Assembly: GCA_045616815.1 (NCBI GenBank)
Contig: JAZLHN010000173.1
Location: forward strand, 10,564 to 74,563
From: Acutalibacteraceae bacterium
Lineage (GTDB): Bacteria; Bacillota; Clostridia; Oscillospirales; Acutalibacteraceae
Reading direction: 5' to 3'
Length of the DNA: 64,000 nt
Positions 16,975 through 62,012 of the stretch are shown one piece after another (position 1 is the stretch's first letter; each line of letters opens with the position of its first letter). The position numbers were made by a program, and so were the translations under genes. The notes under the pieces are model-generated. The model was given only the letters and a program-made list of their open reading frames with translations, searched no databases and was not told the DNA's origin.

Positions 16975-19900
16975 ATGAAGAAAAAGATCTATCTCATACA
17001 GGCCAGCGCCGTTTACGGCGAAAGCGTGAAAAGCGCCTACCTCCCTTACGCGGCGGGCTGCCTTGCCGCCTACGCCTTTGCGGACGAAAAGATAAAAGAG
17101 GAGTATTCTCTCGGCAGATTTATTTTTACCCGCGAGAATATCGACGAGGCCGTTGCCTCCCTTGAGAAGCCGTATTTTGTCGGTTTTTCGTCCTATATCT
17201 GGAATATGGAGTACAACAAGCTTTTCGCGAAAAAGCTGAAAGAAAAATATCCGGACGTCATCATCGCGTTCGGCGGCCATAACGTGAAGCCCGACGGCAG
17301 CGATCTGGATAAGATCCCCGAGGCCGATATCATTATGCACGGCGAGGGAGAAAAGGTATTCAAAGATCTTCTGCTGGCTCTTTCGGCAAACAGACCGTAT
17401 TCCTCTGTCGGCGGCGTGTCTTTCCGGGAAAACGGTTCTGTTGTCACAACACCCGCGGGCGAAGCGGCGGATATCGCTTCATTCCCTTCTCCTTATACGG
17501 AGGGATATTTTGACGATATCATCCGTGATTCCGGGATCGTTCCGTCCATCGTATGGGAAACCAACCGCGGTTGTCCCAACCGCTGCGCGTTCTGCGACTG
17601 GGGTTCTCTCAAATCGAAGCTCAGACAGTTCCCGATGGATAGGATCAGGGCGGAGCTCGACTGGATGGCGGAAAATAAGATCGAATACGTTTACTGCGCC
17701 GATTCCAATTTCGGAATATATCCGCGTGATACCGAGATCGCCGATATGATCATTGCATACAACGAAAAATACGGCTATCCGAAGGTATTCCGTACCAATT
17801 ATACGAAAAATAAAGACGACGTCGTGTTTGAGATCAGCAGCAAGCTTATCAATCGGCGTATCGGCAAATCCCCCACGCTCTCTTTCCAGAGCCTTTCGCC
17901 CGACGTGCTTGAAAAGATCGGCCGGAGCAACATGGATCTTGTGAATTTCAAAAGGCTCATGGCGCGCTACAGCGAAGCGAAGGTACCTGTTTTTTCGGAG
18001 CTCATACTCGGTTTGCCGGGCGAGACCTACGACAGCTTTACGGACGGGATCTGCGACCTTATTGAGTCCAATCAGCATACGGCTCTCGGTATCTATCCCT
18101 GTGAGCTTCTTCCCAATTCCCGCATGGGCAGCAAAGAATTCTGTGAAAAATACGGTATCCGCACCGTGCACACGGAGTTCGCGCAGTATCACACTAAGCC
18201 GGAGGAGGACGGCATAAAGGAAATGTCCAATATCGTCATATCCACCTCCGATATGGGGATCGCGGACTGGAAGCGTTCGTTCATCTTCTCGGTGTGCGTG
18301 CAGGCTTTCCACAATCTTGCGCTGACCAGAGCCATCGCCATATATCTTAATAAAGAAAAAAATATTCCGTATAAACGGTTTTACGAGTCGCTGATAAGTC
18401 TTATCTCTTCCGCAAAGGAAGACAGTGTATGCGGTCGGGTCTTCCGCAGGATCCGTGCGTTGACCGACGGCGTTATAGACGGAAAGAATTCGTTCTCCTG
18501 TTTGTTCGGCGACGAGGAACGGCTGCTGTGGAGTTTTGAGGAATATATGTTCCTCGCCCTGGCGAGGGAAGCGGACCGGTTCTATGACGAGATCGGCGGA
18601 TTCGTAAAGTCCTATGGGATCGAAGAGGATATTTTCAACGCGCTGATGACGTATCAGAGCGCGATCATCAAAAAACCCGGCAGGACCGGGATGGCTCTCA
18701 CTCTCGGCTATGACTTCTACGGCTATTTCAAGCGCATTTATCAGGATGAATACAAGCCTCTGGAAAAAATCGGAAACACCGTTACGGTTTCGGATACACC
18801 CGCCGCGACGTGGGACGAATATGCTCGTATGAACGTCTGGTACGGCCGCCGCGACGACGCGCAGCTTTATACCGGAAAGAAAAATACGGCGGTACAGACG
18901 TTTGAAAAAACGGAAAAGAAAAACGTGTACATGGTGCAGGCTACCTATCTGAACGGAAAAACCGTTTATATTCCCTATGCCGTGGGCGCGCTCATCGCCT
19001 ACGCGTGGAAGGACGAGACCGTAAAAGCGCATTATAACGCGGCGGATATCTTTTTCCTCCGGGAGGATATCGACGACGTCGTGGCAAAGCTCGATTCTCC
19101 GTTTTACGTGGGATTTTCCTCCTATATGTGGAATTTTGAATACAACAAGAAGCTTGCCGCGAAAATAAAGGAAACATACCCGGAGTGTATCATCCAGTTC
19201 GGCGGACATCAGGTAGCGCCCGGAGACGACATCCTGCGCGAAAATCCTTTTATCGACGTTGCCGTTCACAACGAGGGGGAAGAGCCGTTCAGGCTTCTGC
19301 TGCTCGAGTATCTGAAGGAGCAGCCGGATCTTTCTTCGATCCCCAACGTCACCTACCGCGAAAACGGAGAAATCAAAAGCAATCCCTGTGCCGTTCCCGA
19401 GGTGGACGAGTATCCTTCGCCTTATCAGGAGGGAGTCTTTGACCGGATCATCGCGGAGAATCCGGATATCAGATTCGATGCGCTGCTTGAAACGAACCGC
19501 GGCTGTCCGTATTCCTGCACGTACTGCGGATGGGGCATGTATCAATCGAAGATCCGCATGTTCTCGATGGAGAGGATCTACAAGGATATCGAATGGGCCA
19601 GCGAGCATAAGATCGAGTTCTTAGGCGGCGCGGACGCGAATTTCGGTCTGTTTGACCGTGACGAACAGATCGTGGACTGGATCATCGATTTCAAAAAACG
19701 CACCGGATATCCCGATAAATTCCAGGTATCCTACGCCAAAAACAGCACGGAACGTATTTTCAGAATGACCGAAAAGCTCCATGCCGCCAATATGGATAAG
19801 GGCGTGACGCTTGCCTTCCAGTCTCTTGATCCGCAGGTACTCGACAATATCGGCCGTTCGAATATCAAGCTCGATTATTATTCAACGCTTCTGCGTATGT

Positions 19901-20835
19901 ACGCGAACGCGGGCATCCCCACGTATTCCGATCTGATCATAGGTCTTCCCGGGGAAACGTACGCTTCTTTCGTAAAAGGGATCGATACGCTTCTTGCCGC
20001 GGGACAGCATTCGTCTTTGTTCATCCATATATTGGAATGGCTTCCCTGTTCCACGATGGGCAACAGGGAATATATGGACCGTTTCGGGATCGAATATACC
20101 GTGCTGCCGCTTAATCAGCCCCACCGTGTAAAGACCGGCGAGGACAGCATCACCGAGTATTCGCGTATTATCACAAAGACGAATACCATGGATCACGCCG
20201 AGTGGATAAGGATGAATATGTTCTCCGCGTGCGTGCAGTGCTTCCATCATCTCGGTCTGCTGGAGTATGTGGCGCTGTACTGCCATTATGACCTCGGGTT
20301 CGGTTACGGCGACTTCTATGACCGGCTGCTGACATATCTTGAACAGCACCCGGATACCGTGGCGGGGAACGTCTTCGCCCGCGTGAAACAGCATTTTTCG
20401 GACGTGATCGAAAAAGGCGGTCCCGTTGTGTTCGTTGACGAAACATACGGTCCCGTGTCGTGGACGGCGGAAGAATACGCCTTCCTGGAGATCGTGAGAA
20501 ACAAAAAACGTTTTTATGAAGAGATCCGCGGATTCACGAACGGTCTCGGTATCGATCCCGACGTGCTGGACGACCTTTTCGGGTATCAGTACGCGATCAT
20601 CAAAACGGTCAACAACAGGCACAGCGAACAGGTCATCCGTTATGATTTCCCCGACTATTTCAAAGGCGCGCTGGAGGGAATGCCCCCTGCTCTTGCGCCG
20701 GCGGATAAAAAACTCGTCATCGACGATCCCGATACCTTCGATAACTGGGAGGATTACGCCCGTTTCGTCGTTTGGTACGGGCGGCGCGGCGGCAAGAATA
20801 TCTATCTTTCCGAAGCGCATATCGAAGAAATATGA
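16975..20835 (+). CDS. Tandem-fused double B12-binding-domain-type radical SAM enzyme (two complete clade-A modules, 1286 aa)
   Basis: Module 1 has VGFSSYIWN, AFGGHN, HGEGE, TNRGCPNRCAFCDWG (17572-17595) and WDEYARMNVWYGRR. Module 2 restarts at KKNVYMVQ (about 18919) with GFSSYMWN, FGGHQ, HNEGE, TNRGCPYSCTYCGWG (19504-19527) and WEDYARFVVWYGRR. Confidence 0.85.
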   Translation: MKKKIYLIQASAVYGESVKSAYLPYAAGCLAAYAFADEKIKEEYSLGRFIFTRENIDEAVASLEKPYFVGFSSYIWNMEYNKLFAKKLKEKYPDVIIAFGGHNVKPDGSDLDKIPEADIIMHGEGEKVFKDLLLALSANRPYSSVGGVSFRENGSVVTTPAGEAADIASFPSPYTEGYFDDIIRDSGIVPSIVWETNRGCPNRCAFCDWGSLKSKLRQFPMDRIRAELDWMAENKIEYVYCADSNFGIYPRDTEIADMIIAYNEKYGYPKVFRTNYTKNKDDVVFEISSKLINRRIGKSPTLSFQSLSPDVLEKIGRSNMDLVNFKRLMARYSEAKVPVFSELILGLPGETYDSFTDGICDLIESNQHTALGIYPCELLPNSRMGSKEFCEKYGIRTVHTEFAQYHTKPEEDGIKEMSNIVISTSDMGIADWKRSFIFSVCVQAFHNLALTRAIAIYLNKEKNIPYKRFYESLISLISSAKEDSVCGRVFRRIRALTDGVIDGKNSFSCLFGDEERLLWSFEEYMFLALAREADRFYDEIGGFVKSYGIEEDIFNALMTYQSAIIKKPGRTGMALTLGYDFYGYFKRIYQDEYKPLEKIGNTVTVSDTPAATWDEYARMNVWYGRRDDAQLYTGKKNTAVQTFEKTEKKNVYMVQATYLNGKTVYIPYAVGALIAYAWKDETVKAHYNAADIFFLREDIDDVVAKLDSPFYVGFSSYMWNFEYNKKLAAKIKETYPECIIQFGGHQVAPGDDILRENPFIDVAVHNEGEEPFRLLLLEYLKEQPDLSSIPNVTYRENGEIKSNPCAVPEVDEYPSPYQEGVFDRIIAENPDIRFDALLETNRGCPYSCTYCGWGMYQSKIRMFSMERIYKDIEWASEHKIEFLGGADANFGLFDRDEQIVDWIIDFKKRTGYPDKFQVSYAKNSTERIFRMTEKLHAANMDKGVTLAFQSLDPQVLDNIGRSNIKLDYYSTLLRMYANAGIPTYSDLIIGLPGETYASFVKGIDTLLAAGQHSSLFIHILEWLPCSTMGNREYMDRFGIEYTVLPLNQPHRVKTGEDSITEYSRIITKTNTMDHAEWIRMNMFSACVQCFHHLGLLEYVALYCHYDLGFGYGDFYDRLLTYLEQHPDTVAGNVFARVKQHFSDVIEKGGPVVFVDETYGPVSWTAEEYAFLEIVRNKKRFYEEIRGFTNGLGIDPDVLDDLFGYQYAIIKTVNNRHSEQVIRYDFPDYFKGALEGMPPALAPADKKLVIDDPDTFDNWEDYARFVVWYGRRGGKNIYLSEAHIEEI

Positions 20836-20846
20836 TATAATATAAA

Positions 20847-20890
20847 CAACCTCGGGCTTTCCGTGTAAGGAAGATGCCCGAGGCTGTTTT
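20847..20890. terminator. Bidirectional terminator hairpin between convergent radical SAM genes
   Basis: caacctcgggc...gcccgaggctg stem with an internal sub-stem, followed by ttttt. Confidence 0.7.
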
Positions 20891-22803
20891 TACATGTATT
20901 CTATTGTGACGGATTCCCGGTCGTTCGTGGCGAGCGTCGCGCTGCGGCGTTTGCCGTACCAGATGATCTCGCGGGCGTATTCGTCCCACGCGGTGATATT
21001 TTTCTCCATTTTTATATGGAGGATATTTTTTTTCTTTTCGAGAGGCTTATACTCCCGCATATAGATATTGCGGAAATAGTTATAAAAATCGTATTCCAGC
21101 GGCAGATGCAGTTCGTTTTTATCCGGCTGACGGAGAATCTCGGTCTGATAGGTAAGGAGCTGACTGTAAACGTCGTCGGGAATGCCGAGCGATTCGAAAA
21201 ACGGGAGCATTTCCTGCGTGTAGCGGGCCAGCTCGTGAGTGCACTCGAGGAAAAGTCCCTCCTCGAAATACCAGCCCGTGGTGCCGAAGATATCCTTCTG
21301 ATACGCCCACGGATTTTCGGTATCGCTGATGGTATCGCGTACCCAGGTGAGGACCTGTCCCGGCAGGGTATCCGGACGGCTCGAAAGAAAAGCAAAGAGT
21401 CTGTTGTAAAAATCGAGATAGGACATACCCATCTCGTGGCGCATATACAGGGCAAAGCAGCGCACGAGACCGATGTAATGGAAGGCCTCTACGCACACGG
21501 CGTAAACGTTGGTTTTTTCCCAATCCGCGCGGCTCATCGAATAGGATCCGGTCGTTATGCGGAAGCGCTCGTTCACACCGCTGAAATCCGGCGTGTAATG
21601 CACGGCGTCGATGGGTACCTCCGTGACCTCCATTTTGTATTTTTCCTGATAGTCTTTTTTGCCCATGGGGGCGTTCGGATAGACCTGACAGTGGTGGAAG
21701 GTGACCGAATTGTGCTGACCCATTTCCATCAGATCGCAGAGCGTTTTCCGGAAGCTTTCAAAGGATTCTCCGGGCAGGCCGAGGATCAGGTCGGAATAAG
21801 TCGGGATGCCGATGGCATTGCAGCGTTTTGCCAGATCGGTGAACACGTCTACGTCAAGATTTTCGCGGGCGATGTTGTCAAGAGCCTCTTCGCAGGTAGT
21901 CTGATAGGATATGGTGATCCCCTTGTCCGCGCCCGCGGCGTTGAGGATCCTGCCAGCCTCAAACACGGTATCGTTGCTGTTTTTCGCGTAGCAGGGCTTG
22001 AATATGTTGGGATAGCCGTTCTTTTTCCGTACGTCCACCACCCACTGTGCGATCTCGATATCCCGTTCAACGATACCGAAATTGCCGTCCGCGCAGTAAA
22101 TGTATTCCAGCTTATGATCGCTTGCCCACTGTATCTCCGCCTTGACCTTTTCGATCGGGAAGAGCCGCAGCCTTCTGTCGTGGCTCCATTCGCAGTAGGC
22201 ACAGGTGTAGGGACAGCCGCGGTTGGTCTCCACGGTCATATTGAACATGATCTCCGGGTGCTCGGCCATGATATCGTCGAAGATCCCGGTGAGATAGGGG
22301 GAGGGAAATCCGGATAGGTCGTTGAGCTGCTGCGGGATCCTTACGATCTTTCCGTTTCTGCGGAACATGGCGCCCGGCACATCGTCACAGCTTTCGCCGT
22401 GCAGACAGTGCTTGAGCAGCATGGGAAAGGATACTTCGCCTTCGCCGTATAAAACGAAATCGACGTCGGGCTGTTCGTTCAGCATTTCCGAATCCGGCGT
22501 GATGCTGTGACCGCCGACGACGATCGTACAGTCCGGATATTTTTCCTTTACGAGTTTCGCAAGGCGTTTATTGTATTCCGTATTCCAGAAGTTTGTGGAA
22601 AAGGTCACGACGTCCGGAGCGGTTATCCGGGCGAGGTTGTTCTCAAGCGTATCTCTTTCAAAGATCAGTACGGGTTTCTCATAGTTTGCCGCGATCTCGC
22701 CGTCCGCAAATGCGCTCGCCGCGATACAGCCCGCCGCATAAGGCAGATAAACAAGAGACCGATCAAAGCTGAAACCAATTTGTATCATGTACAGTTTTTT
22801 CAT
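20890..22803 (-). CDS. B12-binding-domain-type radical SAM enzyme, clade A (subtype A1)
   Basis: MKKLYMIQ...YLPYAAG, VVGGHS, YGEGE, TNRGCPYTCAYCEW and the C-terminal WDEYAREIIWYGKRR are present. ATG 22803 is preferred over GTG 22812. Confidence 0.85.
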   Translation of the reverse strand: MKKLYMIQIGFSFDRSLVYLPYAAGCIAASAFADGEIAANYEKPVLIFERDTLENNLARITAPDVVTFSTNFWNTEYNKRLAKLVKEKYPDCTIVVGGHSITPDSEMLNEQPDVDFVLYGEGEVSFPMLLKHCLHGESCDDVPGAMFRRNGKIVRIPQQLNDLSGFPSPYLTGIFDDIMAEHPEIMFNMTVETNRGCPYTCAYCEWSHDRRLRLFPIEKVKAEIQWASDHKLEYIYCADGNFGIVERDIEIAQWVVDVRKKNGYPNIFKPCYAKNSNDTVFEAGRILNAAGADKGITISYQTTCEEALDNIARENLDVDVFTDLAKRCNAIGIPTYSDLILGLPGESFESFRKTLCDLMEMGQHNSVTFHHCQVYPNAPMGKKDYQEKYKMEVTEVPIDAVHYTPDFSGVNERFRITTGSYSMSRADWEKTNVYAVCVEAFHYIGLVRCFALYMRHEMGMSYLDFYNRLFAFLSSRPDTLPGQVLTWVRDTISDTENPWAYQKDIFGTTGWYFEEGLFLECTHELARYTQEMLPFFESLGIPDDVYSQLLTYQTEILRQPDKNELHLPLEYDFYNYFRNIYMREYKPLEKKKNILHIKMEKNITAWDEYAREIIWYGKRRSATLATNDRESVTIEYM

Positions 22804-22882
22804 GACTGCCACCGTGTTTCATTGATAATAATATAAAAATCATTATAACACGGAAGACGAAAAAAATCTACCGTTGATTTGT

Positions 22883-22910: not shown

Positions 22911-22943
22911 ATTAAGTAACATATTTTTGACCCGGTGATATTT

Positions 22944-24848
22944 ATGAAAAATATTTATTTTATTCAGGTTGGTTTTGATTTCGACGGATCTGTGTATCTT
23001 CCGTACGCCGTGGGTACGATGGCGGCTTATTGTCTTGCGGACGAAAAACTGAATAAGGAATACGCTTTCCCCGATTTCATTTACCGTCGGGAAAAGCTGG
23101 ACGACGCACTTTCAAAGATAAAGGATCCGTATATCGCCGCGTTTTCCTGCAGCGTGTGGAATATGGAATTCAACAAAACGCTCGCAAAGCGCGTGAAAGA
23201 AAAATATCCGGAATGTATCGTCATTTTCGGCGGCCACAGTGTCCGTGAAAATGACTGCTCCCTGCTTGAAAGCGAGTCCTACGTCGATATCCTGATGTAC
23301 GGCGAGGGTGAAAAGACCTTTGCCGATATTTTGGCCGCCCTGCCGGCGGACGCGCTCGGAACGGTGGAAAACATAGCATTCCGGAAAGGCACGGAATACG
23401 TGCGCACCGAAAGAAGCGTATGCTCGGATCTGTCAAATCATCCGTCCCCGTATCTTACGGGCGTTTTCGATAAGATCATGGACGAAAATCCCGGTGCCGA
23501 CTGGCTCGCAGTGCTGGAAACGAACCGCGGCTGCCCCTATTCCTGTGCCTACTGCGACTGGTGCGCGGGTAAAAAGATGCGTCATTTCCTGCTCGAAAAG
23601 GTGCTCGGCGAGATCGACTGGTTCGCGAAAAACGAAGTGGAATATATTTTCTGCGCCGACTCCAATTTCGGTATGTTCGACCGTGACGTCGAAATAGCAG
23701 AATACCTTGTGGCATCGAAAAGAAAGACCGGCTATCCCAAGGTATTCCGTCCGTGCTACGAAAAGAACAGCGCGGACAGAGTGTTCAATATCTGCCGTAT
23801 CCTCAATTCCGAAGGTATGGACAAGGGCGCGACGATGGCGTATCAGACGCTTTCCGACGACGCGCTGAAAAACATCGGCCGGAAGAATCTGACGATGGAG
23901 CATTTCTCCTCTCTGCTTCAGCGATACAACGAGGCGGGCATTCCCACCTATTCGGAGCTTATTTTAGGCCTGCCCGGCGAAACGAAGGAAAGCTTCTGCG
24001 AGGGCATCTGCCGTCTGCTTGAAAACGGTCAGCACAATTCGATCAACGTCTATCACTGCGAGATGCTGCCGAACTCCGATATGTCGGAAAAGTCTTTCGT
24101 CGAAAAGCACGGTATCAAAGAAATAAAAGTACCCTTCAATCATATACACAGCGCGATCAAACGGGATGAGGAGGTACAGGAATATTCCTATCTCGTGCGC
24201 GCCACCGCGACCCTGCCCGAAGAGGACTGGGTGTACGCAAATCTGTTTTCGATCACGGTGCAGTGTTTCCACAGCCTCGGTTTTCTGCGTCTGTTTTCGA
24301 TCTATCTCAACTATGAGAAAAACGTAAAATATATCGACTTTTTTACCGGGCTGCTCGATTTCATCCTGAATTCGGACGGCAGACTCGGTGTGCTGTGGAG
24401 AGGCTTCCGCGAGAAATACGAAAGCTCTCTTTCCGGCGACTGGAATTATCACAACGAAAAATTCGGCAACGTGACGTGGTTCTTCGAGGAGGGCGCGTTT
24501 TTAGAGCTCGTGTGCGAGCCGGACGCGTATATGAACGAGCTTCTGCCGTATCTGAAGACTTTTGATATCGGGGATGAGCTGTTCAAGCAGATGCTCGTTT
24601 TCCAGCGTCATATCGTGCGTATTCCTTCGGGCGGAGAAGCGGAGATCACATCCGATTGGGATATCTTTTCTTTCTATACAAGCGTGATCGGCGGCAGTCC
24701 CGAACCTTTACGGAAACGGAAGACCACGGTGAGATTCTGTCCGTCGGTGACATATGACGATATCGAGACCTACGCTCGCGAAACGGTATGGTTCGGCAGA
24801 CGCCGCGGCGCGGCCATGCTGCACGGAAAGGAAATGATCCGCTTATGA
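22944..24848 (+). CDS. B12-binding-domain-type radical SAM enzyme, clade A (A1)
   Basis: MKNIYFIQ...YLPYAVG, IFGGHS, YGEGE, TNRGCPYSCAYCDW and YARETVWFGRRR. Confidence 0.85.
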   Translation: MKNIYFIQVGFDFDGSVYLPYAVGTMAAYCLADEKLNKEYAFPDFIYRREKLDDALSKIKDPYIAAFSCSVWNMEFNKTLAKRVKEKYPECIVIFGGHSVRENDCSLLESESYVDILMYGEGEKTFADILAALPADALGTVENIAFRKGTEYVRTERSVCSDLSNHPSPYLTGVFDKIMDENPGADWLAVLETNRGCPYSCAYCDWCAGKKMRHFLLEKVLGEIDWFAKNEVEYIFCADSNFGMFDRDVEIAEYLVASKRKTGYPKVFRPCYEKNSADRVFNICRILNSEGMDKGATMAYQTLSDDALKNIGRKNLTMEHFSSLLQRYNEAGIPTYSELILGLPGETKESFCEGICRLLENGQHNSINVYHCEMLPNSDMSEKSFVEKHGIKEIKVPFNHIHSAIKRDEEVQEYSYLVRATATLPEEDWVYANLFSITVQCFHSLGFLRLFSIYLNYEKNVKYIDFFTGLLDFILNSDGRLGVLWRGFREKYESSLSGDWNYHNEKFGNVTWFFEEGAFLELVCEPDAYMNELLPYLKTFDIGDELFKQMLVFQRHIVRIPSGGEAEITSDWDIFSFYTSVIGGSPEPLRKRKTTVRFCPSVTYDDIETYARETVWFGRRRGAAMLHGKEMIRL

Positions 24849-25585
24849 CAGCCCCGGAGTTTACGTCCGTGTCCGTGATGATGGGCGCGGTATCGGAAAC
24901 GGAGTCTCTGCGCCGGACCGTTTACGGCATTGCCGCCGCCGTTGAGCAGAAATCGGATATCGCCGAGCTGCTGATCGCTTATCCGGCCGACCGGGTAACA
25001 CCGGAATGCAAAGCCGTGCTGGACGAACTGCAGAACGAAGAAGTCGGCGTCAAACTCGATATCTTTCCGCAGATAACCCCCGGGATCGGTTTTTATTCGG
25101 ACGCGATCGAAAGGGCTACCGGCTCTCACTGCATTCCGTTTCAGACGGATATGGCTATGCCGCTTGAGATAATAGCCGATCTCATAGCCGAAGGAAAAAA
25201 AGATCCTTCGATTTTCGTGACGACCTCCCGCTGGCTGCCGGAATGTAAATGGACAGGCTACGGAGCTGTAAAAAAAGTGATAAATAAGCTTGCTCAGATC
25301 TTTTTGCGCGTGCTTTTCGGCGGAGGTCTCACCGATTATACCTGTCCCGTGCAGCTCATACCCACAGAGATCATGAAAAACATCCGTTGGGAGAAAAACG
25401 ATTTTTCCCGGTTTATGGAGATGCAGATAAAGCCTTTGCGTCTGGGATATAAATTCCGTGAGATCCCCGTGGATTGTCTGGAGCGTACGGACGGACAGTC
25501 AAGCAACAGCACGATACAGATCTTCAATTATCTGAAAACCGCTTTTCATCTGCGGTTTATGAAAAAACAGGATATACTCAAGTGA
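24845..25585 (+). CDS. Small soluble GT-A/DPM1-like glycosyltransferase-fold protein with a degenerate DxD (paralogue 1 of 3)
   Basis: Its ATG overlaps the upstream stop (ATGA). It has FQTDMAMPL in place of DxD, then SRWL...GYG...TDYTCPVQLIP...ERTDGQSSNS (DPM1-like R-x-x-G-x-S C-terminal pattern). No TM helix is present. Confidence 0.55.
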   Translation: MTAPEFTSVSVMMGAVSETESLRRTVYGIAAAVEQKSDIAELLIAYPADRVTPECKAVLDELQNEEVGVKLDIFPQITPGIGFYSDAIERATGSHCIPFQTDMAMPLEIIADLIAEGKKDPSIFVTTSRWLPECKWTGYGAVKKVINKLAQIFLRVLFGGGLTDYTCPVQLIPTEIMKNIRWEKNDFSRFMEMQIKPLRLGYKFREIPVDCLERTDGQSSNSTIQIFNYLKTAFHLRFMKKQDILK

Positions 25586-34042: not shown

Positions 34043-34071
34043 TTGACATTTATCGGCGGCCATGATACTAT
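34043..34071 (+). promoter_or_regulatory. Sigma-A-type promoter (TTGACA-17 nt-TACTAT)
   Basis: Read directly: tTTGACAtttatcggcggccatgaTACTAT. It implies the ATG at 34062 is not the start codon. Confidence 0.5.
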
Positions 34072-34100
34072 TTCAATATTACGGAAACGGGGTGATTTCT

Positions 34101-37271: not shown

Positions 37272-37557
37272 CTGTCGTTCTCCGAAGAAATACTGATTTT
37301 TATTCAATAATAGCATATTCGCAAAACAAAGTCCATCCGTTTTTGGAGCGCGCGGAGAAATAATGTTGACAATTCCCGAAGAATCCCTTAAAATTTTCAA
37401 TAAGAAAAATCTATAAGAAAAACAATTTCACCATGCGGATCTGAGAACGAAAGTCTGATATGTTGCTTCTCAAAAATAAAGTGAAATGCTGCGTTGCGGT
37501 AATCGGTCTCGTATTTCTTTTGTGTCTTGCGGCGCAGCGGAAAGGAATGGGCTTGAT

Positions 37558-42729: not shown

Positions 42730-42782
42730 ATATACGCATTATAAATTATTCTTTTACTGATTTGTTTTATAAGAGGCGCATT

Positions 42783-46986: not shown

Positions 46987-47010
46987 TATTTTTACGGAGT
47001 TGTGACGCGT

Positions 47011-48105: not shown

Positions 48106-48121
48106 CGAAAGGATGAAGCCT

Positions 48122-52960: not shown

Positions 52961-52986
52961 TGCGCGCTGCGAAAAAAGGTGACAGA

Positions 52987-54926: not shown

Positions 54927-55688
54927 ATGGCGGAGTTTGAAAACGTTTCCATCATGCTCGGAGCGGTGGACGAGACCGATTCTCTGCGCGCCACCGTACA
55001 TACGATCCTCGATCTGTGCGGGCATAAGGATATAAAAGAATTCATCATCGGCTATTCGCAGCACGTAACGCCGGAATGTAAGGCGGTCGTGGATGAGCTT
55101 GCCGCCATGGGGGGCGACGTGCCCGTCGTCACCTTCATGCAGACGCGCAAGGGCATTGAGGCTCTCACCGAGATGATCGATATCGCGCGCGGCTCGCACT
55201 GCCTGCTGCTTTCCTCCGACCTCGCGCATGACCTGACGAGCGTCGTCACGCTGATCGAAGAAGCGAAAAAGGACGGCGACACGATCGTTTCTTTTTCCCG
55301 GTGGCTGAAGGGTTGTGAGTTCTACGGCTACGGAAAAGTGAAATATCTGTTCAATTTCGCGGCACAGCAGCTTCTCAAGATCATGTTCGGAGCGAAGCGC
55401 ACCGATTTTACGAATCCGTGCCAGATCGTGCCGACGAAGGTCTATCAGTCGATAATCTGGGAGAGCGAGGGTTTTCCGATCCTCATAGAGCTCGTTCTCA
55501 AGCCCATGCGCCTCGGCTGCCGTTTTAAGGAAGTGCCCACCAACTGCTATCAGCGCAAACAGGGAAAATCGAAAAACTCGTTTAAGCAGACCGCGCTTTA
55601 CTTGAAGACGGCCCTGCATATCCGTTTTATGAAGAAAAAAGAAATTCTGAAAAAGGATTCGGAACTTTATAAAAAATATTATGGCTGA
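54927..55688 (+). CDS. Small soluble GT-A/DPM1-like protein with a degenerate DxD (paralogue 3 of 3)
   Basis: LLLSSDLAHDL, SRWLKG...GYG...TDFTNPCQIVP and QRKQGKSKNS are present. Its stop overlaps the start of the next radical SAM gene. Confidence 0.55.
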   Translation: MAEFENVSIMLGAVDETDSLRATVHTILDLCGHKDIKEFIIGYSQHVTPECKAVVDELAAMGGDVPVVTFMQTRKGIEALTEMIDIARGSHCLLLSSDLAHDLTSVVTLIEEAKKDGDTIVSFSRWLKGCEFYGYGKVKYLFNFAAQQLLKIMFGAKRTDFTNPCQIVPTKVYQSIIWESEGFPILIELVLKPMRLGCRFKEVPTNCYQRKQGKSKNSFKQTALYLKTALHIRFMKKKEILKKDSELYKKYYG

Positions 55689-57624
55689 ATCAAAGAAAAA
55701 CGTTTATTTCCTTCAGGTCAATTTCCCATACGGAAAAACGGCGCATCTGCCTTACACGGCGGGGGCGCTGACGGCGTATGCCATGGCGGATGAACGCGCG
55801 GCGGAAGCCTATGCGCTGCGGGATATTTTCTTTTTGCGGGAGGAACCCGATAAGCTGCTCGCAAAAATAAAGGATCCCGACGTGATCGGCTTTTCGACTT
55901 ATATATGGAATTTCGAATACAATAAATTTATCGCCCGGGAGATCAAAAAGCGTTATCCCGGCTGCACCGTTATTTTCGGCGGACATCACGTTCCGCCCGG
56001 CGGGGAGCTGCTGGAGAAATGTCCTTTTATTGACTTCCTGATCCACGGCGAGGGCGAAGAGGCGTTTAAGAACCTTTTGCTGTACGCGGCGGGATACGGC
56101 ACTCTTCCGGAGATCGCCGGTATATCCTACCGCTCGGGAAACGGCGTCGTGACGACTCCGAACGGCGTGTGCGCCGCCGGCGATACGATCGACTACCCGT
56201 CGCCGTATCTGAACGGTTATTTTGATAAAATACTCGATGAAAACAAAGACCTCACGTTTATGGCGCTGATCGAAACGACGCGCGGCTGCCCCAATTCCTG
56301 CTCTTACTGCGATTGGAGCAATATGAAATCGCGCATCCGCAAATTCCCGCTCGAACGGGTATTCGGTGAGATCGACTGGGTAAGCGAACATAAAATTTAC
56401 GGTCTCGGCTCGGCGGATTCCAATTTCGGTATCTTTGAGCGCGACGAGCGCATCACCGACTATATCATCGAAAAGTTTCTCAACAACGGCTATCCGAGAG
56501 GCTATCAGACCTCTTACGCCAAAAACAGCAACGAGCGCATTTTCCGCATCGGCTGCGCGCTCGAAAAATATCATCTGAGCAAGGGCATCACCCTGTCGTT
56601 TCAGTCTATGGACGATACGACGCTTGCGAATATCGGCCGTAAGAACATCTCCGTCAACAGCTTCCGGGAGCTGATGGATATGTACAACGCCGCCGGTATC
56701 AGCACCTATACCGAGCTCATTCTCGGTCTGCCCGGAGAGACTTATGAGAGCTTCACCTCCGGTATCGAAAGACTGCTCGAACTCGGTCAGCACAATTCGA
56801 TCTATATCCACAACTGCGAGTGGCTGCCCTGCTCGGTGATGGGCACCCCGGAGTATGTTGAAAAATATAAGATAAAGACGGCGAAGATCCCGCTCAATCA
56901 ACCGCATATAGAGGGCGACGCGGCGGACGGCATCCCCGAATATTCCCGTCTTGTGATAGCCACCTGCTCCATGACGGAGGAGGACTGGATAAACATGAAC
57001 CTGTTTTCGTTCACGGTGCAGTGCTTCCACCATTTAGGGCTGTTCCAGCTTTTCGCGCTGTACCTTTACAACGAAAAAAACGTAGGGTACGGGGAATTTT
57101 ACAATAAGACGCTTTCGTGGCTGCTTACTTCCGATAACGCGGCTTCGCGGGTGATGCGCGAAATAAAGAGGCGGCTCACCGATATCGTGAACGGCGTGCC
57201 CGGCGCGGCCTTCGTTGCGGAGGATGAGCGCTTCGGCAAGGTGCGCTGGCCGTTTGAGGAATATCTTTTCCTCTGCGCCGTGCGGGAGCTTGACGCGTTT
57301 TACGCCGCCGCAGAAGAATTCCTTGCGGGATTTTTCGGCGATGATCCCGTTTTCCCGGAGCTCATGCGCTTCCAGAGGGCAATGATCAAACGCCCGTTCA
57401 ACAAAGAAACGGAAATATCCTCGGACTGCGATTTCGAGACGTATTTTCTGAACGCGCTCGAAAACAGACGCGTTCCGCTGAAAAAAGAAAAACATACGAC
57501 GGCGATCAAAGCCGTTTATTACGACGACTGGACGTTTTACGCGAAAAAAGTGGTCTGGTTCGGCAGAAAAGAAAACAGAAATATCTACCTCGGCGAAAAC
57601 GGCGAACGCAGCGAGGAGAAATAA
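55681..57624 (+). CDS. B12-binding-domain-type radical SAM enzyme, clade A (A2)
   Basis: KKNVYFLQ...HLPYTAG, IFGGHH, HGEGE, TTRGCPNSCSYCDWS and YAKKVVWFGRK. Confidence 0.85.
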   Translation: MAESKKNVYFLQVNFPYGKTAHLPYTAGALTAYAMADERAAEAYALRDIFFLREEPDKLLAKIKDPDVIGFSTYIWNFEYNKFIAREIKKRYPGCTVIFGGHHVPPGGELLEKCPFIDFLIHGEGEEAFKNLLLYAAGYGTLPEIAGISYRSGNGVVTTPNGVCAAGDTIDYPSPYLNGYFDKILDENKDLTFMALIETTRGCPNSCSYCDWSNMKSRIRKFPLERVFGEIDWVSEHKIYGLGSADSNFGIFERDERITDYIIEKFLNNGYPRGYQTSYAKNSNERIFRIGCALEKYHLSKGITLSFQSMDDTTLANIGRKNISVNSFRELMDMYNAAGISTYTELILGLPGETYESFTSGIERLLELGQHNSIYIHNCEWLPCSVMGTPEYVEKYKIKTAKIPLNQPHIEGDAADGIPEYSRLVIATCSMTEEDWINMNLFSFTVQCFHHLGLFQLFALYLYNEKNVGYGEFYNKTLSWLLTSDNAASRVMREIKRRLTDIVNGVPGAAFVAEDERFGKVRWPFEEYLFLCAVRELDAFYAAAEEFLAGFFGDDPVFPELMRFQRAMIKRPFNKETEISSDCDFETYFLNALENRRVPLKKEKHTTAIKAVYYDDWTFYAKKVVWFGRKENRNIYLGENGERSEEK

Positions 57625-57647
57625 CTTATATGAAGGAGGGGAGCCGT

Positions 57648-59180
57648 ATGCAGCGTTATGACGCGATCGTGATCGGCGCGGGCAACGGCGGTCTTGCCGC
57701 CGCGGCGGCTCTCGCCAAGGGCGGCAAAAGGGTCGCTCTGTTTGAAAAGAACCGTACTCCCGGAGGTGTCGCCACGTCCTTCCGGCGCGGTCGGTTCGAT
57801 TTCGAGGTGTCGCTGCACGAGCTGTGCGGCTTCGGAAGAGACGAAAACCGTTCCGGCAGTGTCAGAAATCTTTTCGACTTCCTCGGTATATCCGATAAGA
57901 TCGGGTGGGCGGACGTGCCGGAGGCCTACAGGATCATTACCTATGACAGTCCCGATAATATTGATGTAACGATGCCCTTCGGCATAAACGAATATATCGA
58001 CGCGATGGAAAAATTCGTTCCCGGCAGCCGCGCTGATATCAAAGCGGCGTTCGATCTCGCCGCGGAATATCTGGCCGCCACCGCCGCGTTGGGCGCGGCG
58101 AAGAGCCCGGCGGAAGCGGTCGAAACGCTGCTTCGGTATCCGGATTTTCTGCATACCTGCTCCATGAGCGCGGACGACGGCATCGAGGCGGTGGGCTTGA
58201 AGGGAAAAGCCGCCGATATTTTCAGGGGGTACTGGGCGTATCTGTGCGCCGATTGTAACGATCTTACCTTTCTTCACTATCTGAGCATGGTGAATTCCTA
58301 TATCGAACTGAAGTCCGTCATCCCAAAAGGGCGCAGCCTGGAAATGACCCTGGCGCTCTCGGAGTGCATAGAGGAAAACGACGGAAAACTTTATCTGAAC
58401 ACCGAGGTCGGGCATATCCTCGTGAAGGAGGGCAGGGCTTACGGCATCGTTACCGCCAACGGCAGGGAATATGAAGCGGACGATATCATCTGCGATCTTT
58501 CTCCGCACACCGTGTTCGGAAAGATGATCGCCCCGGAGCATATCACCGAACGCGATACGAAAAAAACGAATGCGCGCGAGCTCGGCGGCAGAGGCTTCTG
58601 CGTGTTCCTCGGGCTGAACAAGTCCGCAAAGGAACTGGGACTCAACGAATATTCCTATTTTATCTATCCCGACATGGACACCGTGAAGCAGGTAAAAAAC
58701 ATGGCGTCCCCCGAAACGAACGGCGTACAGAATACGGTGTGCATCAACGCCGCCGACCCGGACGCTTCCCCGGAGGGCACCTGCATCCTCACGATGACTA
58801 CGTTATTTACTTCCGATTGGTGGGACGGACTCACTGCGGAGGAATATTATAAAGCCAAAGATGCGTTCGCCGAAAAAATGGTGAAGACGTTTGAAAAAGC
58901 GACCGGCGTGAACGTGCGCGATCATATCGAGGAGATCGAGATCGCCGCGCCCGCCACCTTCGCGCGGTATATGAATTCTCCGCAGGGCTCCATTTACGGT
59001 TATAAGGAATCCGTGCGGGACAGTATGTTCGCGCATAAGCTCATGGACAAAAAATATACCGATATAATCGGTCTGGAATTTGTGGGCGGTTTCGGTATGA
59101 ACCTGAACGGCTATTCGTCCGCGTTCGGCACGGGATTTTCCAAGGCGAAATATATATTATCCCGTGACGGTCTTCTGTGA
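57648..59180 (+). CDS. FAD-dependent oxidoreductase, phytoene-desaturase (CrtI)/amine-oxidase-like
   Basis: The N-terminal dinucleotide fold is YDAIVIGAGNGGLAAAAALAKGGKRVALFEKNRTPGG. The length is about 510 aa. SD aaggagg precedes ATG 57648. Confidence 0.65.
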   Translation: MQRYDAIVIGAGNGGLAAAAALAKGGKRVALFEKNRTPGGVATSFRRGRFDFEVSLHELCGFGRDENRSGSVRNLFDFLGISDKIGWADVPEAYRIITYDSPDNIDVTMPFGINEYIDAMEKFVPGSRADIKAAFDLAAEYLAATAALGAAKSPAEAVETLLRYPDFLHTCSMSADDGIEAVGLKGKAADIFRGYWAYLCADCNDLTFLHYLSMVNSYIELKSVIPKGRSLEMTLALSECIEENDGKLYLNTEVGHILVKEGRAYGIVTANGREYEADDIICDLSPHTVFGKMIAPEHITERDTKKTNARELGGRGFCVFLGLNKSAKELGLNEYSYFIYPDMDTVKQVKNMASPETNGVQNTVCINAADPDASPEGTCILTMTTLFTSDWWDGLTAEEYYKAKDAFAEKMVKTFEKATGVNVRDHIEEIEIAAPATFARYMNSPQGSIYGYKESVRDSMFAHKLMDKKYTDIIGLEFVGGFGMNLNGYSSAFGTGFSKAKYILSRDGLL

Positions 59181-59189
59181 GGTGCCCCG

Positions 59190-60167
59190 ATGAAACACGA
59201 CAGTATATCACTTCAAAAGGATTTAGAGGCGTTTCGGAATATCACCGCGGGCAGGCTCGCGCTCTTCGACGCCGCCTCCTCCGACCCGATAAAAGCCCCG
59301 GAGGGCGTGAATGTGCTGGCAAAAGAACTGCATCCGGACTGCCTCCGTCTTACCGTTTCGGCAAAAACGGAGGATGGCGACGGTACGCTCACGCTGACGC
59401 TGGGATGCGAAAACGGAAAGCTTCCGTTTTTCCGTGCGGGGCAGTATATCAATATCCTTTGCGGAGAGAATATATATCCCTTCTTCCTGAGCGGCGCGCC
59501 GTCCGACGCGCTGAAGGGAAGCTATGAAATAAGCGTTGAAAAAGAAAATGCGGTTTACGGCTTTTTCTCCGTGCTTAAAGAGGGCGCTCCCCTCGTTTCG
59601 GGCGCGCCGATGGGGTATTTTTATCGTCAGCCGCTGCGGGACGGTGTTTCCTCGGCGGTGATCGCCGACAGCACCGGCCGGGGCGCGGCGCTCTCCATGC
59701 GGCACAATGAAAACACCGATATTTTTCTGTGTGAGAGTACACAGTCTGTTCCCGCCGCCGAAGAGATAAACGCCGACACCGTTTTTCTCTGCGGCAAAAA
59801 GGAATTCTGTGAAAAGGCGGAAGAAATATTCTCCGACAAGCACGTCCGGACATTATATACCGACGCGCCCGTGAAAAACGCGCAGCGTGAAAAATTCACC
59901 TGCACCGTTATTTGCGGTGACGATACGTTTTCGTTCGATTGCTTTTCGGACGAGCCGCTGATGACCGCGCTTGAAAAAAACGGCGTGAGGCTTTTCAATA
60001 AATGCCGCACGGGCGACTGCGCTTTCTGCCGCGCAAGGCTCATAAACGGAACGGTTTCCCATGCTTTTGACGGCGAAGACGATGCGCGCCGCAAAGCCGA
60101 TATCAAATACGGCTATATCCACCCCTGCCGCGCTTTTGCCGAAAGCGACGTCACCTTAAAATACTGA
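59190..60167 (+). CDS. Ferredoxin-reductase-like protein with a C-terminal plant-type 2Fe-2S ferredoxin domain (flavin/NAD motifs degenerate)
   Basis: FRAGQYINI is an FAD-barrel-like motif. The C-terminal CRTGDCAFC...(about 32 aa)...HPC gives a CX4CX2C...C ferredoxin pattern. Confidence 0.6.
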   Translation: MKHDSISLQKDLEAFRNITAGRLALFDAASSDPIKAPEGVNVLAKELHPDCLRLTVSAKTEDGDGTLTLTLGCENGKLPFFRAGQYINILCGENIYPFFLSGAPSDALKGSYEISVEKENAVYGFFSVLKEGAPLVSGAPMGYFYRQPLRDGVSSAVIADSTGRGAALSMRHNENTDIFLCESTQSVPAAEEINADTVFLCGKKEFCEKAEEIFSDKHVRTLYTDAPVKNAQREKFTCTVICGDDTFSFDCFSDEPLMTALEKNGVRLFNKCRTGDCAFCRARLINGTVSHAFDGEDDARRKADIKYGYIHPCRAFAESDVTLKY

Positions 60168-60188
60168 TCTTCCGCGAGGAAATATTTT

Positions 60189-62012
60189 ATGAAAACACTT
60201 TTTATCTCCGTACCGCAATGGTACCCGATGAATCCGTATCTTTCCGGAGCGATCCTTGTCGGTCAGCTCAAAGCCGCCGGGTATGAGGCCGCCTCCTACG
60301 ATCTGAATATCGAATTTTTCAACGACGTTCTGAAAAGGGATTTCGTTGAAAGCAGCCTGGAAAACGCGAAAGTGCAGCTTCCGGCACTGAAAGAACTGGC
60401 GGACGGCCTTGACGAGCCCGAAAAAAATTTCAATACCTATTCCAAGGACGTGCGTACACGCCTTCTGCGGTATAAAACGATCGCCGGGTTTCTTGCGAAC
60501 GAAAACGGTCATGCAGAACGCACGATCGAAAACGTGGAGGACTCCGTAAGCGTACTGAAGGACAAAGAGCGGTTTTACGAGCCGGAAACGCTGTTCCGCG
60601 CCAAGGATACTCTTGTTGACGCGCTGAAAATCATATCTTTGCCCTACGCGCCGTCGAAGATCATGCTCGACAATTTCATTGCCGATCCGGTCATGTCGTT
60701 TTCCTTTGACGATGTGAAAGATCAGTGCTTCGATCCGTTCCGCAATATGTTCATCCCGTATTATGAGCACAAATTCAGCGAGATCCCGCTCGACGGCTGC
60801 GACCTCATCGGCATTTCGATGACCGATTTAAGCCAGCTCATCCCCGCGCTCACCCTCGGCAGGATGATAAAAGAGCGCACGGACAAAAAGGTGTGTATGG
60901 GCGGCAACTACGTCTATAAGATCATCACCGAGATCAAGGAAAATCCCGAGTTCTTTTCGCTTTACTGCGATTTCGTTTCCGTGGGCGACGGGGAGACCGC
61001 CGCTGTGGAGCTGGCGCAGTATATGAACGGCGAAAGAGAGCTTAAGGACGTGCATTCGCTTGTATGGTGCGAAAACGGCACGGTGATCACGAACGAAACG
61101 GCGCCCTTGCTCGATCTCGATGCTCTCTCTTATCCCGATTTCGGCGATTACGATTTTTCAAAGTATTTTTCCCCCGATATCGTTTTGCCCGTGCAGCTCG
61201 GCAAGGGCTGTTACTGGAGCAAATGCACGTTCTGCGATTTCTACACGGGACAGCAGAAATTCGATATGAAGAGCGTTTCCCATGCCGCCGACGAGGTGGC
61301 GTATCTCGTGAAGCGCTATGACGTTTCTCATTTTATTTTCGTGGACGAGGCAGTGCCCGCACCGTTTTACGACAAATTCGTCGATGAACTGAACGCCCGC
61401 GGCGTCCATATCCGGTTCTATTCGTTCGCGCGGCTCGATAAAGGCTTTACCAAGGGGCTGCTCAAAAAACTGCACGATAACGGAGCTCAATTTTTCTCAT
61501 GGGGCTACGAAGCGGAATCTCCGCGTCTTCTCAAGCTCATGAACAAGGGCATCGACCCTGAGGTCAGGACGCGCATCCTGCGGGATTGTGTGGAGATCGG
61601 TATGTGGACGCAGTGTACGTTTTTGCTGGGTTTCCCCACCGAAACACCCGAGGAGCTGCAGTCCACCATCGACGTGATCGAGGACCGAATGCTCATCAAC
61701 AGCTGTACGCCATCGAATTTCGCGCTCAAAAAGAACGCCATTCTCAAAAATGAGTTGAATTCCGTGGGCATCACCGATTATCGGTCCAACGGCGATTTCC
61801 ACGTTTCGTGCAGCTATCATTCCCTGAATACGACCATGGAAAAGGTAAAGCACGACCGCATGACCTTTGAACGCCGCTTCCTTGCCGAAACGGCGGACAG
61901 TATGTGGAGCCTCGGCTTTACCGACACCGATCACCTGCTGCTCTATTTATCCAAATACGGCAGAGATTACGTCAGGGATTATCGCCTGAAATATAAAAAA
62001 GAGCAGCCGTGA
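60189..62012 (+). CDS. B12-binding-domain-type radical SAM enzyme, clade B (CX4CX2C)
   Basis: MKTLFISVPQWYP, IGISMTD, MGGNY, VGDGE, GKGCYWSKCTFCDF and LLLYLSKYGRDYVRDYRLKYK. Confidence 0.8.
   Translation: MKTLFISVPQWYPMNPYLSGAILVGQLKAAGYEAASYDLNIEFFNDVLKRDFVESSLENAKVQLPALKELADGLDEPEKNFNTYSKDVRTRLLRYKTIAGFLANENGHAERTIENVEDSVSVLKDKERFYEPETLFRAKDTLVDALKIISLPYAPSKIMLDNFIADPVMSFSFDDVKDQCFDPFRNMFIPYYEHKFSEIPLDGCDLIGISMTDLSQLIPALTLGRMIKERTDKKVCMGGNYVYKIITEIKENPEFFSLYCDFVSVGDGETAAVELAQYMNGERELKDVHSLVWCENGTVITNETAPLLDLDALSYPDFGDYDFSKYFSPDIVLPVQLGKGCYWSKCTFCDFYTGQQKFDMKSVSHAADEVAYLVKRYDVSHFIFVDEAVPAPFYDKFVDELNARGVHIRFYSFARLDKGFTKGLLKKLHDNGAQFFSWGYEAESPRLLKLMNKGIDPEVRTRILRDCVEIGMWTQCTFLLGFPTETPEELQSTIDVIEDRMLINSCTPSNFALKKNAILKNELNSVGITDYRSNGDFHVSCSYHSLNTTMEKVKHDRMTFERRFLAETADSMWSLGFTDTDHLLLYLSKYGRDYVRDYRLKYKKEQP

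Follow-up and report, generated by a model that had tools for sequence, protein, structure and literature searches.

What does a gut bacterium do with 15 cobalamin-type radical enzymes (16 modules) encoded close together among genes for sugar metabolism, and on what do these enzymes act? The question is raised by a locus of ~50 kb in an Acutalibacteraceae bacterium (GenBank assembly GCA_045616815.1, contig JAZLHN010000173.1, positions 10,564 to 74,563). The whole 64,000-nucleotide stretch is called the window here, and coordinates refer to it; the functional part of the locus extends from ~12497 to at least 62713. A regular-expression scan of the long open reading frames (ORFs) detected 16 Cys triads in 15 ORFs between 16975 and 62012, of which 13 have the spacing CX3CX2C and three CX4CX2C. 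The Pfam domain of radical S-adenosylmethionine (SAM) enzymes, Radical_SAM (PF04055), occurs in each of the 15 genes and twice in the one at 16975-20835, which encodes 1286 aa. The triad in every module, reported in an initial annotation of this DNA, is thus confirmed. The radical SAM genes fill 29,343 of 45,038 bp and belong to six transcription units, in agreement with the earlier estimates of about 29 of 45 kb and at least six units. All-versus-all BLASTP separated three clades, ~22-29% identical to each other. Clade A has ten modules in nine genes, one of them a fused pair (34-76% identity within the clade), and clades B and C have three modules each (42-56% and 36-43%).

The N-terminal region indicates the cobalamin-binding type. 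Every one of the nine clade A genes matches the model PF02310: six reach its gathering score, and those at 22935, 31968, and 52960 stay under it with E-values of 1e-4 to 4e-7. The match is strong in all three clade C genes (59-72 bits). In clade B, only one of three genes is matched, and weakly (28 bits), and the domain is supported there by three other observations. The alignment of clade B to clade C by hhalign has a probability of 100% and includes the Rossmann region, most close homologues of clade B bear a precomputed PF02310 match, and a clade B structure model described below gives Foldseek matches of the same kind. At the level of sequence, it is confirmed that all 16 modules are cobalamin-type radical SAM proteins of three clades, and the N-terminal Rossmann domain claimed earlier is found in each clade. 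The C-terminal signatures proposed for the clades are present as written in all modules of B (3/3) and C (3/3) and in eight of the ten modules of A, the other two deviating. Four genes probably start inside the ORFs first listed, at 49089, 27466, 24845, and 54927 instead of 48957, 27586, 24788, and 54852, respectively. No cobalamin riboswitch or any other Rfam element was found in the locus.

Clade A is homologous over its full length to the methylase TokK. Its genes are at 16975-20835 (+), 20890-22812 (-), 22935-24848 (+), 30045-31961 (-), 31968-33890 (-), 49089-51011 (+), 51038-52960 (+), 52960-54909 (+), and 55681-57624 (+). The first of them contains two complete modules, with two CX3CX2C motifs, two Radical_SAM stretches, and two B12-binding stretches, and each half can be aligned over its whole length with the remaining clade A genes. 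The others are assigned by the Cys motif and Pfam, together with BLASTP (20890, 22935, 30045, 31968, and 52960), the clade alignment (these five, 49089, and 55681), or, for 51038-52960, direct comparison with the solved structure of TokK (PDB 7KDX), which gave a score of 338 bits and an identity of 36% over 527 aa. TokK is the C6 methylase of carbapenem synthesis, which adds three methyls in succession, and CysS is the iterative methylase of cystobactamid synthesis. The clade A profile matches TokK with an E-value of 4.7e-151 over profile positions 7-586 of 645, and CysS is its second-best solved relative (E 6e-82). The alignment covers the cobalamin domain, the radical SAM domain, and most of the C-terminal domain. 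In TokK, Trp76 is positioned below the cobalt, and Trp215 separates the cobalt from the cluster (bioRxiv 10.1101/2021.07.10.451909; 2026 review PMC12931638). Their equivalents, W74 and W208 in the clade A alignment, are invariant in 10/10 clade A modules. The position of TokK R280, which binds the substrate carboxylate, is occupied by K or R in eight of ten modules and by Gln in two.

The sugar at hand may be a heptose, judging from the gene cassette upstream of clade A, which is separated from the first gene of this clade by 28 bp. The cassette starts with a gene for an RmlD-like reductase/epimerase (epi1) of the short-chain dehydrogenase/reductase (SDR) type (12497-13393 (+); Pfam Epimerase and RmlD_sub_bind, weak NCBIfam rmlD). 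It is followed by genes for an HddA-like GHMP sugar kinase (13409-14386 (+); Pfam GHMP_kinases_N/C; HddA NF049969 145 bits, cutoff 600), an SDR of the epimerase/4,6-dehydratase-like kind (epi2; 14399-15334 (+); Pfam Epimerase and GDP_Man_Dehyd), a small cupin of the sugar epimerase/isomerase type (15338-15700 (+); Pfam Cupin_2, Polysacc_synt_C, and FdtA), and an HddC-like nucleotidyltransferase fused to a GmhB-like phosphatase (15693-16946 (+); NCBIfam HddC 220 bits, cutoff 300; GmhB TIGR00213 149.6 bits, at the cutoff). Such a set, with an HddA-like kinase, GmhB, HddC, an SDR dehydratase/reductase, and a cupin epimerase, also occurs in the pathways for GDP-D-glycero-alpha-D-manno-heptose. GDP-heptose or 6-deoxy-heptose variants are made by this gene set for Campylobacter capsules and Aneurinibacillus S-layer glycans. 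Farther downstream, a DegT/PseC/ArnB-type sugar aminotransferase is encoded at 47002-48105 (+) (Pfam DegT 352 bits; NCBIfam PseC, LegC, and ArnB below cutoff). The first gene inventory was incomplete: the cupin gene was unmentioned, as were two genes in the last operon, for a CrtI-like flavoprotein (57630-59180) and a 2Fe-2S protein (59190-60167).

Next to the radical SAM genes lie genes for glycosyltransferases. The products of three of them were earlier called GT-A-like and are here found to be homologues of polyprenyl-phosphate glycosyltransferases: G1 (24845-25585 (+)), with a soluble domain of the DPMS/ArnC/GtrB type, G2 (27472-28197 (-)), located between two clade B genes and recognized by BLASTP and the family profile, and G3 (54927-55688 (+); Pfam GT2 35 bits). 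Their single sequences match weakly, and the profile of the 25-member family matches DPMS (5MLZ) with an E-value of 7e-21, ArnC (9HWJ) with 2e-12, and GtrB (5EKP) with 4e-6. No membrane segment is predicted in G1-G3. A fourth glycosyltransferase, encoded at 48113-49069 (+), is a membrane protein of the PgfS/ArnC-like type (Pfam GT2; NCBIfam PgfS 160 bits, ArnC 120 bits) with C-terminal transmembrane segments. Its gene sits after the DegT gene, just as ArnB adjoins ArnC in the Arn system. The genes of clade A, the G family, and clade B overlap or abut, indicating their co-translation.

Polytopic membrane proteins complete this set. Family X has three paralogues, X1 (34062-35405 (+); ~10 hydrophobic segments), X2 (44267-45622 (+)), and X3 (45655-46986 (+)), the last two recognized by BLASTP and hydrophobicity and all three by family evidence as candidate transferases of the GT-C type. 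None of these window copies has a Pfam match. Among distant members of the family, one matches GtrII PF14264 (2.6e-8) and another PMT_2. A further protein of 661 aa (35415-37400 (-)) is polytopic by its hydrophobicity, has a C-terminal soluble domain, and shows only a weak TgpA_N match. It has neither a PDB relative nor detectable kinship to family X. The initial annotation had regarded the neighbours as envelope and sugar genes, and the HddA/HddC-GmhB-type cassette, the DegT protein, and the PgfS/ArnC-like glycosyltransferase identified here agree with this.

Because the cassette, the G proteins, the membrane glycosyltransferase, and family X occur together, the locus appears to follow a Gtr/Arn-type logic, in which a sugar is loaded on polyprenyl phosphate inside the cell and transferred outside. 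The Gtr, Arn, and CsbB-YfhO systems consist of three components: GtrB or ArnC, a flippase, and a GT-C enzyme. The G family and the protein at 48113 match DPMS, ArnC, GtrB, and PgfS, and family X shows weak GtrII, PMT_2, and GT-C signals. In contrast to these systems, the G proteins have no membrane anchor, a flippase is not recognized, and several pairs of donor and transferase genes are found in one locus. To our knowledge, the known Gtr/Arn/CsbB-YfhO systems carry no radical SAM enzymes.

The most likely explanation, with about an even chance, is that the locus encodes a Gtr/Arn-type envelope glycosylation system with many cytoplasmic cobalamin-dependent radical SAM tailoring enzymes, which C-methylate or alkylate tethered sugars by radical chemistry. 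In such a system, the GDP-heptose-type cassette and the DegT aminotransferase would supply nucleotide sugars. G1-G3 and the membrane PgfS/ArnC-like glycosyltransferase would load the sugars onto polyprenyl phosphate, and family X, possibly with the 661-aa protein, would transfer them to an extracytoplasmic acceptor such as an envelope polymer. The ten clade A modules would be methylcobalamin-dependent radical C-methylases of the heptose-derived sugar, some perhaps iterative, and each conserved paralogue would act on a distinct carbon or at a successive step. GDP or polyprenyl phosphate could serve as the handle in place of the pantetheine arm of TokK and CysS substrates. Clades B and C would add further radical tailoring, by methylation or otherwise, in the sub-modules B-G-B, B-CrtI-Fer2-B, and C with X or the 661-aa protein. 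The 2Fe-2S protein would be a dedicated electron supply, and the CrtI-like flavoprotein would add a redox step. The predicted product is a glycan or glycolipid of the cell surface that is heavily C-alkylated and characteristic of Acutalibacteraceae.

Is this architecture peculiar to one genome? One genome per species was scanned, and 317 loci encode clade A relatives. The neighbourhood counts given here concern the best 79 of the 317 loci (numbered with L), sampled to ±10 kb (~22 kb each), and the eight densest were mapped gene by gene. All 79 are from uncultured Clostridia, mostly labelled Acutalibacteraceae, of ruminant, horse, chicken, and other guts. Close homologues of the proteins exist in thousands and are named only in general terms, for example "cobalamin-dependent protein", "radical SAM protein", or "hypothetical protein". 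The comparison of neighbourhoods revealed the same architecture in many metagenome-assembled genomes (MAGs) of Acutalibacteraceae; the locus is not one-off. The related loci contain from 1 to 10 radical SAM genes per 22 kb, with 10 in L012, L025, and L067, and the overlapping samples L027 and L075 on one contig jointly contain at least 12 clade A genes.

The heptose cassette is found in 24 of the 79 loci, and in 13 of these 24 the HddC-GmhB gene is directly followed by clade A. The epi1 gene adjoins the HddA-like gene in 10 related loci, and the cupin gene is at the equivalent place in L048, L041, and L056. In minimal clusters, the order is HddA, cupin, HddC-GmhB, two to four A genes, sometimes with G, and then SDR and X, within unrelated flanks; the epi2 orthologues in these clusters are 66-79% identical. 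The G gene adjoins A in 48 of 49 cases, and B-G adjacency is observed 31 times. The order A-A-B-G-B-C-C-C recurs across genomes, B-CrtI-Fer2-B is seen in L001, and clade C is found with X and the 661-aa protein and, in two related loci, near DegT. Homologues of the 661-aa protein are present in 6 related loci.

The paralogues fall into separate, conserved orthogroups. Orthologues of the genes at 22935, 30045, and 31968 are up to 66% (in 41 loci), 69%, and 73% identical, respectively, and several window paralogues, at least five, have 60-73% identical orthologues in many genomes. Most paralogues of the window are only 34-53% identical to each other; the pair at 49089 and 51038 alone is closer (76%). 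Since the orthologues exceed most paralogues in similarity, the duplications are considered to be old and each copy to have been maintained.

Some variations among the related loci were also observed. In most related genomes, the counterparts of the fused pair at 16975-20835 are separate genes, and two other versions longer than 1250 aa are present among the 79 loci. Minimal clusters in other genomes, such as L048 and L056, start with a gene for a D-isomer-specific 2-hydroxyacid dehydrogenase (L048 6331-7278, L056 2437-3384), which is Pfam-confirmed in L048 only. Some minimal clusters contain a conserved gene of ~290 aa or a gene for a membrane protein of 257-270 aa, both with no Pfam match. 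The window lacks all of these genes, including that for the dehydrogenase.

Several observations weigh against the glycosylation reading as a whole or against its details. Pfam scans of the window ORFs detected no SIS-domain isomerase that could be GmhA, and the HddA-like and HddC-like proteins score under the NCBIfam cutoffs; because of both, "heptose" is the best guess only. The cassette is unlike known GDP-heptose pathways in these two respects and also in the radical SAM enzymes beside it; we know of no GDP-heptose pathway that contains radical SAM methylases. The substrate pocket of clade A differs from that of TokK not only at R280 but also at L383, replaced by C, and Y410, replaced by H. 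The best NCBIfam model for clade A is the KedN5 family NF033712, with 220-250 bits per single-module gene and 501 bits for the two-module gene, under the cutoff of 700. On sequence grounds, clade A resembles the TokK-type methylases and lies outside the curated KedN5 subfamily. Its substrate is very probably unlike that of TokK, because the pocket residues differ and the score is below the subfamily cutoff.

The known members of the TokK type, i.e., TokK, ThnK, CysS, and KedN5, are encoded in actinomycetes and myxobacteria as single enzymes or as one to three cobalamin-dependent radical SAM enzymes per cluster, and they are involved with pantetheinylated antibiotic intermediates. TokK, ThnK, and CysS act on pantetheinylated substrates. 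Unlike them, clade A comprises ten modules in an anaerobic gut Firmicute, with neighbours for sugar nucleotides and polyprenyl-phosphate glycosyltransfer, and with none of the PP-binding, acyl carrier protein, or CoA-ligase domains in any window ORF scanned by Pfam. A flippase (GtrA, EamA) has no match among the window ORFs scanned, small ORFs not having been exhaustively screened. The homologue search for family X found only three proteins, and the family model is of low confidence (predicted local distance difference test (pLDDT) score 56) because it was built on four sequences. Eight of its nine best Foldseek matches are GT-C proteins (among them STT3, PglB, PIG-M, and AftB), and they are weak (E-values of at least 0.03, TM-score ~0.33); the structure model is thus weak evidence for GT-C-type transferases. 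Close characterised relatives are found for neither clade B nor clade C; among their nearest families are the peptide or protein methylases TIGR03975, QCMT, and ApyD and also the non-methylating dehydratase AprD4. The genomes with the 79 best loci are MAGs of uncultured bacteria only. The C-methylation proposed in the initial annotation is strengthened for clade A, as a full-length homologue of TokK and CysS. From the gene neighbourhood only, we infer what reactions clades B and C catalyze, the product, and the class of substrate, i.e., a heptose or a polyprenyl-phosphate-linked sugar.

The clade B genes, at 25652-27466 (-), with an ATG start at 27466, 28201-30039 (-), and 60189-62012 (+), were assigned by the Cys motif and Pfam. 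The spacing CX4CX2C, noted earlier for this clade, is found in 3/3 window genes and, as CYW[GAS][KR]CxFC, is strictly kept in 34/34 homologues from related loci. The AlphaFold 2 model for the gene at 28201 has a pLDDT of 92, and its best Foldseek matches are OxsB, TsrM, QCMT/MgmA, CysS, AprD4, and TokK; the comparison with TsrM, OxsB, and TokK that was suggested before thus places all three among the best matches. In this model, a helical insertion of ~150 aa between the first strand and the rest splits the cobalamin Rossmann domain. The top NCBIfam match of clade B is TIGR03975, a maturation C-methyltransferase of ribosomally synthesized and post-translationally modified peptides (RiPPs), with 116-137 bits, under the cutoff of 281.85. 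Clade B, in which the CX4CX2C motif is conserved and the Rossmann domain is split, is by itself an uncharacterised subfamily of cobalamin-dependent radical SAM enzymes. Clade C genes are at 39592-41067 (-), 41081-42562 (-), and 42762-44270 (+), the first two recognized by the Cys motif, Pfam, and BLASTP and the third by the Cys motif and Pfam. The nearest PDB entries for the third are QCMT 9CCB and AprD4, with ~77 bits each. The NCBIfam matches of clade C, to ApyD and the MCR glutamine methylase family, are far below the cutoffs.

These affinities leave some room, at a probability that is modest and well short of even, for a division of labour in which clade A methylates sugars and clades B and/or C alter them through radicals in another way, for instance by dehydration/deoxygenation, by epimerisation, by contraction of the ring, or by formation of C-C bonds. 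OxsB, which catalyzes a ring contraction, and AprD4, a 1,2-diol dehydratase for an aminoglycoside sugar, score like the methylases, and the conserved CYWxKCxFC motif and the ~150-aa helical insertion in the Rossmann domain of clade B are unusual. On the other hand, the B12-binding signature is kept in clades B and C. Methylases make up most of the characterised cobalamin-dependent radical SAM enzymes, and AprD4 shares the fold but lacks cobalamin.

The redox genes of the locus bear on a second alternative. The protein encoded at 57630-59180 (+) is a CrtI/carotenoid-isomerase-like oxidoreductase with flavin adenine dinucleotide (Pfam NAD_binding_8 and Amino_oxidase; NCBIfam carot_isom and CrtD far below cutoff). 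The protein encoded at 59190-60167 (+) has a C-terminal plant-type 2Fe-2S domain (Pfam Fer2), resembles reductase components through weak NCBIfam matches to BenC, Hcr, and MmoC, and is a candidate electron donor. The pair suggests a dedicated step of redox chemistry or electron supply. The two genes are placed after A and before B in the window, and between two B genes in L001 (13777-16385).

That such genes stand beside clade B in the window, and in L001 too, would suit enzymes that modify a lipid, i.e., a polyprenyl carrier or the alkyl chain of a membrane lipid or glycolipid, by methylation, cyclisation, or cross-linking, with the sugars as head group. All clades weakly match HpnJ, HpnR, and TIGR04072 ("lipid biosynthesis B12-binding radical SAM"), and GrsA/B and the hopanoid methylases are examples of cobalamin-dependent radical SAM enzymes that modify lipids (PMC13459092). 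However, the scores to the lipid families are no better than those to many other families of these enzymes and are all far below cutoff, and Pfam scans of the window found no genes for the synthesis of fatty acids, isoprenoids, or glycerolipids. CrtI and Fer2 are observed in 1 of the 79 related loci as sampled (±10 kb), against 24 for the heptose cassette, and the nearest relatives of clade A use small polar substrates. A lipid as the target is therefore considered unlikely.

The number of paralogues could be explained in another way, if they are interchangeable copies in a capsule-like variable locus, serving antigenic diversity at the strain level instead of sequential steps. Gene content and copy number do vary widely, from 1 to 10 radical SAM genes per 22 kb, and the CotH gene, the lipoprotein gene, and the divergent X copies, with three close homologues only, are specific to the strain. 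This explanation is improbable, since at least five paralogues have orthologues of 60-73% identity against 34-53% between most paralogues, as expected for old, maintained specialisations, and since the sub-module order A-A-B-G-B-C-C-C is fixed across genomes.

Least favoured among the alternatives is a peptide or protein encoded outside the locus, for example a surface or S-layer protein, which the radical SAM enzymes modify and the glycosylation genes decorate. The family affinities of clade B (TIGR03975) and clade C (ApyD, the MCR glutamine methylase, and QCMT 9CCB) point in this direction, and the membrane glycosyltransferase is PgfS-like; PgfS belongs to the protein O-glycosylation system of Streptococcus mutans. 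This is quite unlikely, because the matches to TIGR03975, ApyD, and the MCR methylase are far below cutoffs, sugar-nucleotide genes and those for DPMS-like glycosyltransferases are the most closely linked neighbours, and the window has neither a small precursor ORF nor a leader peptidase, a SPASM domain, or an ABC exporter. The gaps inside the window locus are all at most 199 bp, so that no gene for a precursor peptide fits, and in the radical SAM blocks of the eight densest mapped loci most gaps are shorter than 200 bp and none exceeds 240 bp; the earlier view that a precursor ORF is missing and a RiPP unsupported therefore stands. A RiPP as the main explanation is rejected because of this lack of precursor space and the sub-threshold family scores.

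Returning to the glycosylation system with radical C-methylation, the superfamily of all the enzymes and the functional type of clade A are already known. Three aspects appear to be new. One is the context of primary envelope glycan assembly, with a heptose cassette and polyprenyl-phosphate glycosyltransferases. Another is that the specialised paralogues amount to as many as 16 modules, where the characterised pathways known to us have one to three. The third is the host group of strictly anaerobic gut Clostridia. No description of this system was found in the open-access literature, including recent reviews of cobalamin-dependent radical SAM enzymes and of lipid-modifying radical SAM enzymes. 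The earlier statement that no known glycan locus has as many such enzymes agrees with these searches of open-access text. It is proposed tentatively, as the less probable extension of the glycosylation reading, that the products represent a new class of cell-surface glycoconjugate of Acutalibacteraceae, in which heptose and amino-sugar units are poly-C-alkylated or chain-extended at unactivated carbons, with the work divided among up to 16 cobalamin-dependent radical SAM modules that act on sugars tethered to a nucleotide or to polyprenyl phosphate.

Precedents exist for single parts of this proposal. GenK and GenD1 in gentamicin synthesis and Fom3 in fosfomycin synthesis, cobalamin-dependent radical SAM methylases whose substrates are sugars or nucleotide-linked (PMC4340712, PMC4039129), set a precedent for radical C-methylation at sugar carbons that are not activated. 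They differ from the enzymes here in belonging to other sequence clades, in their number of only one or two for each antibiotic pathway, and in their place outside envelope glycan assembly. PoyB/PoyC and BchQ/BchR are alike in that multiple or iterative C-methylations are made on one product. In these cases, two enzymes install many methyls on a peptide (PoyB/PoyC, polytheonamide) or a tetrapyrrole (BchQ/BchR, bacteriochlorophyll), whereas many specialised paralogues in a glycan context are seen here. Fom3 is also a precedent for a substrate on a nucleotide handle.

If the reading is true, the locus would represent the first primary pathway of the envelope to be based on iterative radical methylation of the TokK type. 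Radical C-methylation with cobalamin is so far known mainly from the tailoring of antibiotics, cofactors, and lipids, and it would also be one of the major ways in which a widespread family of Clostridia from gut and rumen diversifies its envelope glycans. Surface synthesis would carry a large demand for cobalamin and SAM, linking the supply of vitamin B12 in the community to the cell surface. The unusual hydrophobic sugars predicted could be phage receptors or immune ligands. The ten naturally diverged TokK-like enzymes, presumably different in regiospecificity and substrate specificity, would be of use in enzymology and as biocatalysts for the C-H methylation of carbohydrates.

The window contains other genes that are not shared with the related loci or lie outside the glycan locus. 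A membrane-anchored protein with a CotH domain (Pfam CotH 83 bits) and a Listeria-Bacteroides repeat is encoded at 37486-39489 (+). A predicted lipoprotein with a signal peptide, the lipobox LAAC, and no Pfam match is encoded at 62009-62713 (+), with an overlap of 4 nt with the last radical SAM gene. Homologues of both, and of a downstream membrane protein, are absent from all 79 related loci. The CotH protein and the lipoprotein, which the initial annotation had counted as members of the envelope system, are therefore rejected as its core parts. The GC content is even across the locus (0.49-0.54), and this flat profile does not support its reading as a horizontal island.

Upstream, a tRNA-Arg(ccg) gene is followed by genes resembling remnants of mobile elements or defence systems (4337-10758), located between the tRNA gene and the glycan locus. 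They include a RelB antitoxin ORF (4901-5200 (-)) with a partner ORF of 62 aa, genes for an extracytoplasmic function (ECF) sigma factor and a membrane anti-sigma-like protein (5432-6801), and genes for TnpV (7297-7689 (-)), a SWIM zinc-finger protein (7926-9569), and a YhcG/DUF1016 PDDEXK nuclease (9733-10758). A Cys-rich ORF of 107 aa at 6922-7245 (+) has weak zinc-finger-like matches (zf-CHY, E 7e-4); it is too long and too distant from the radical SAM genes to be an obvious RiPP precursor. Directly upstream of the cassette, at 10984-12322 (+), a gene for a regulator with HTH_3 and sigma-70 region 4 overlaps a gene for a 282-aa membrane protein that spans the membrane once and has no Pfam match, and this pair may regulate the locus.

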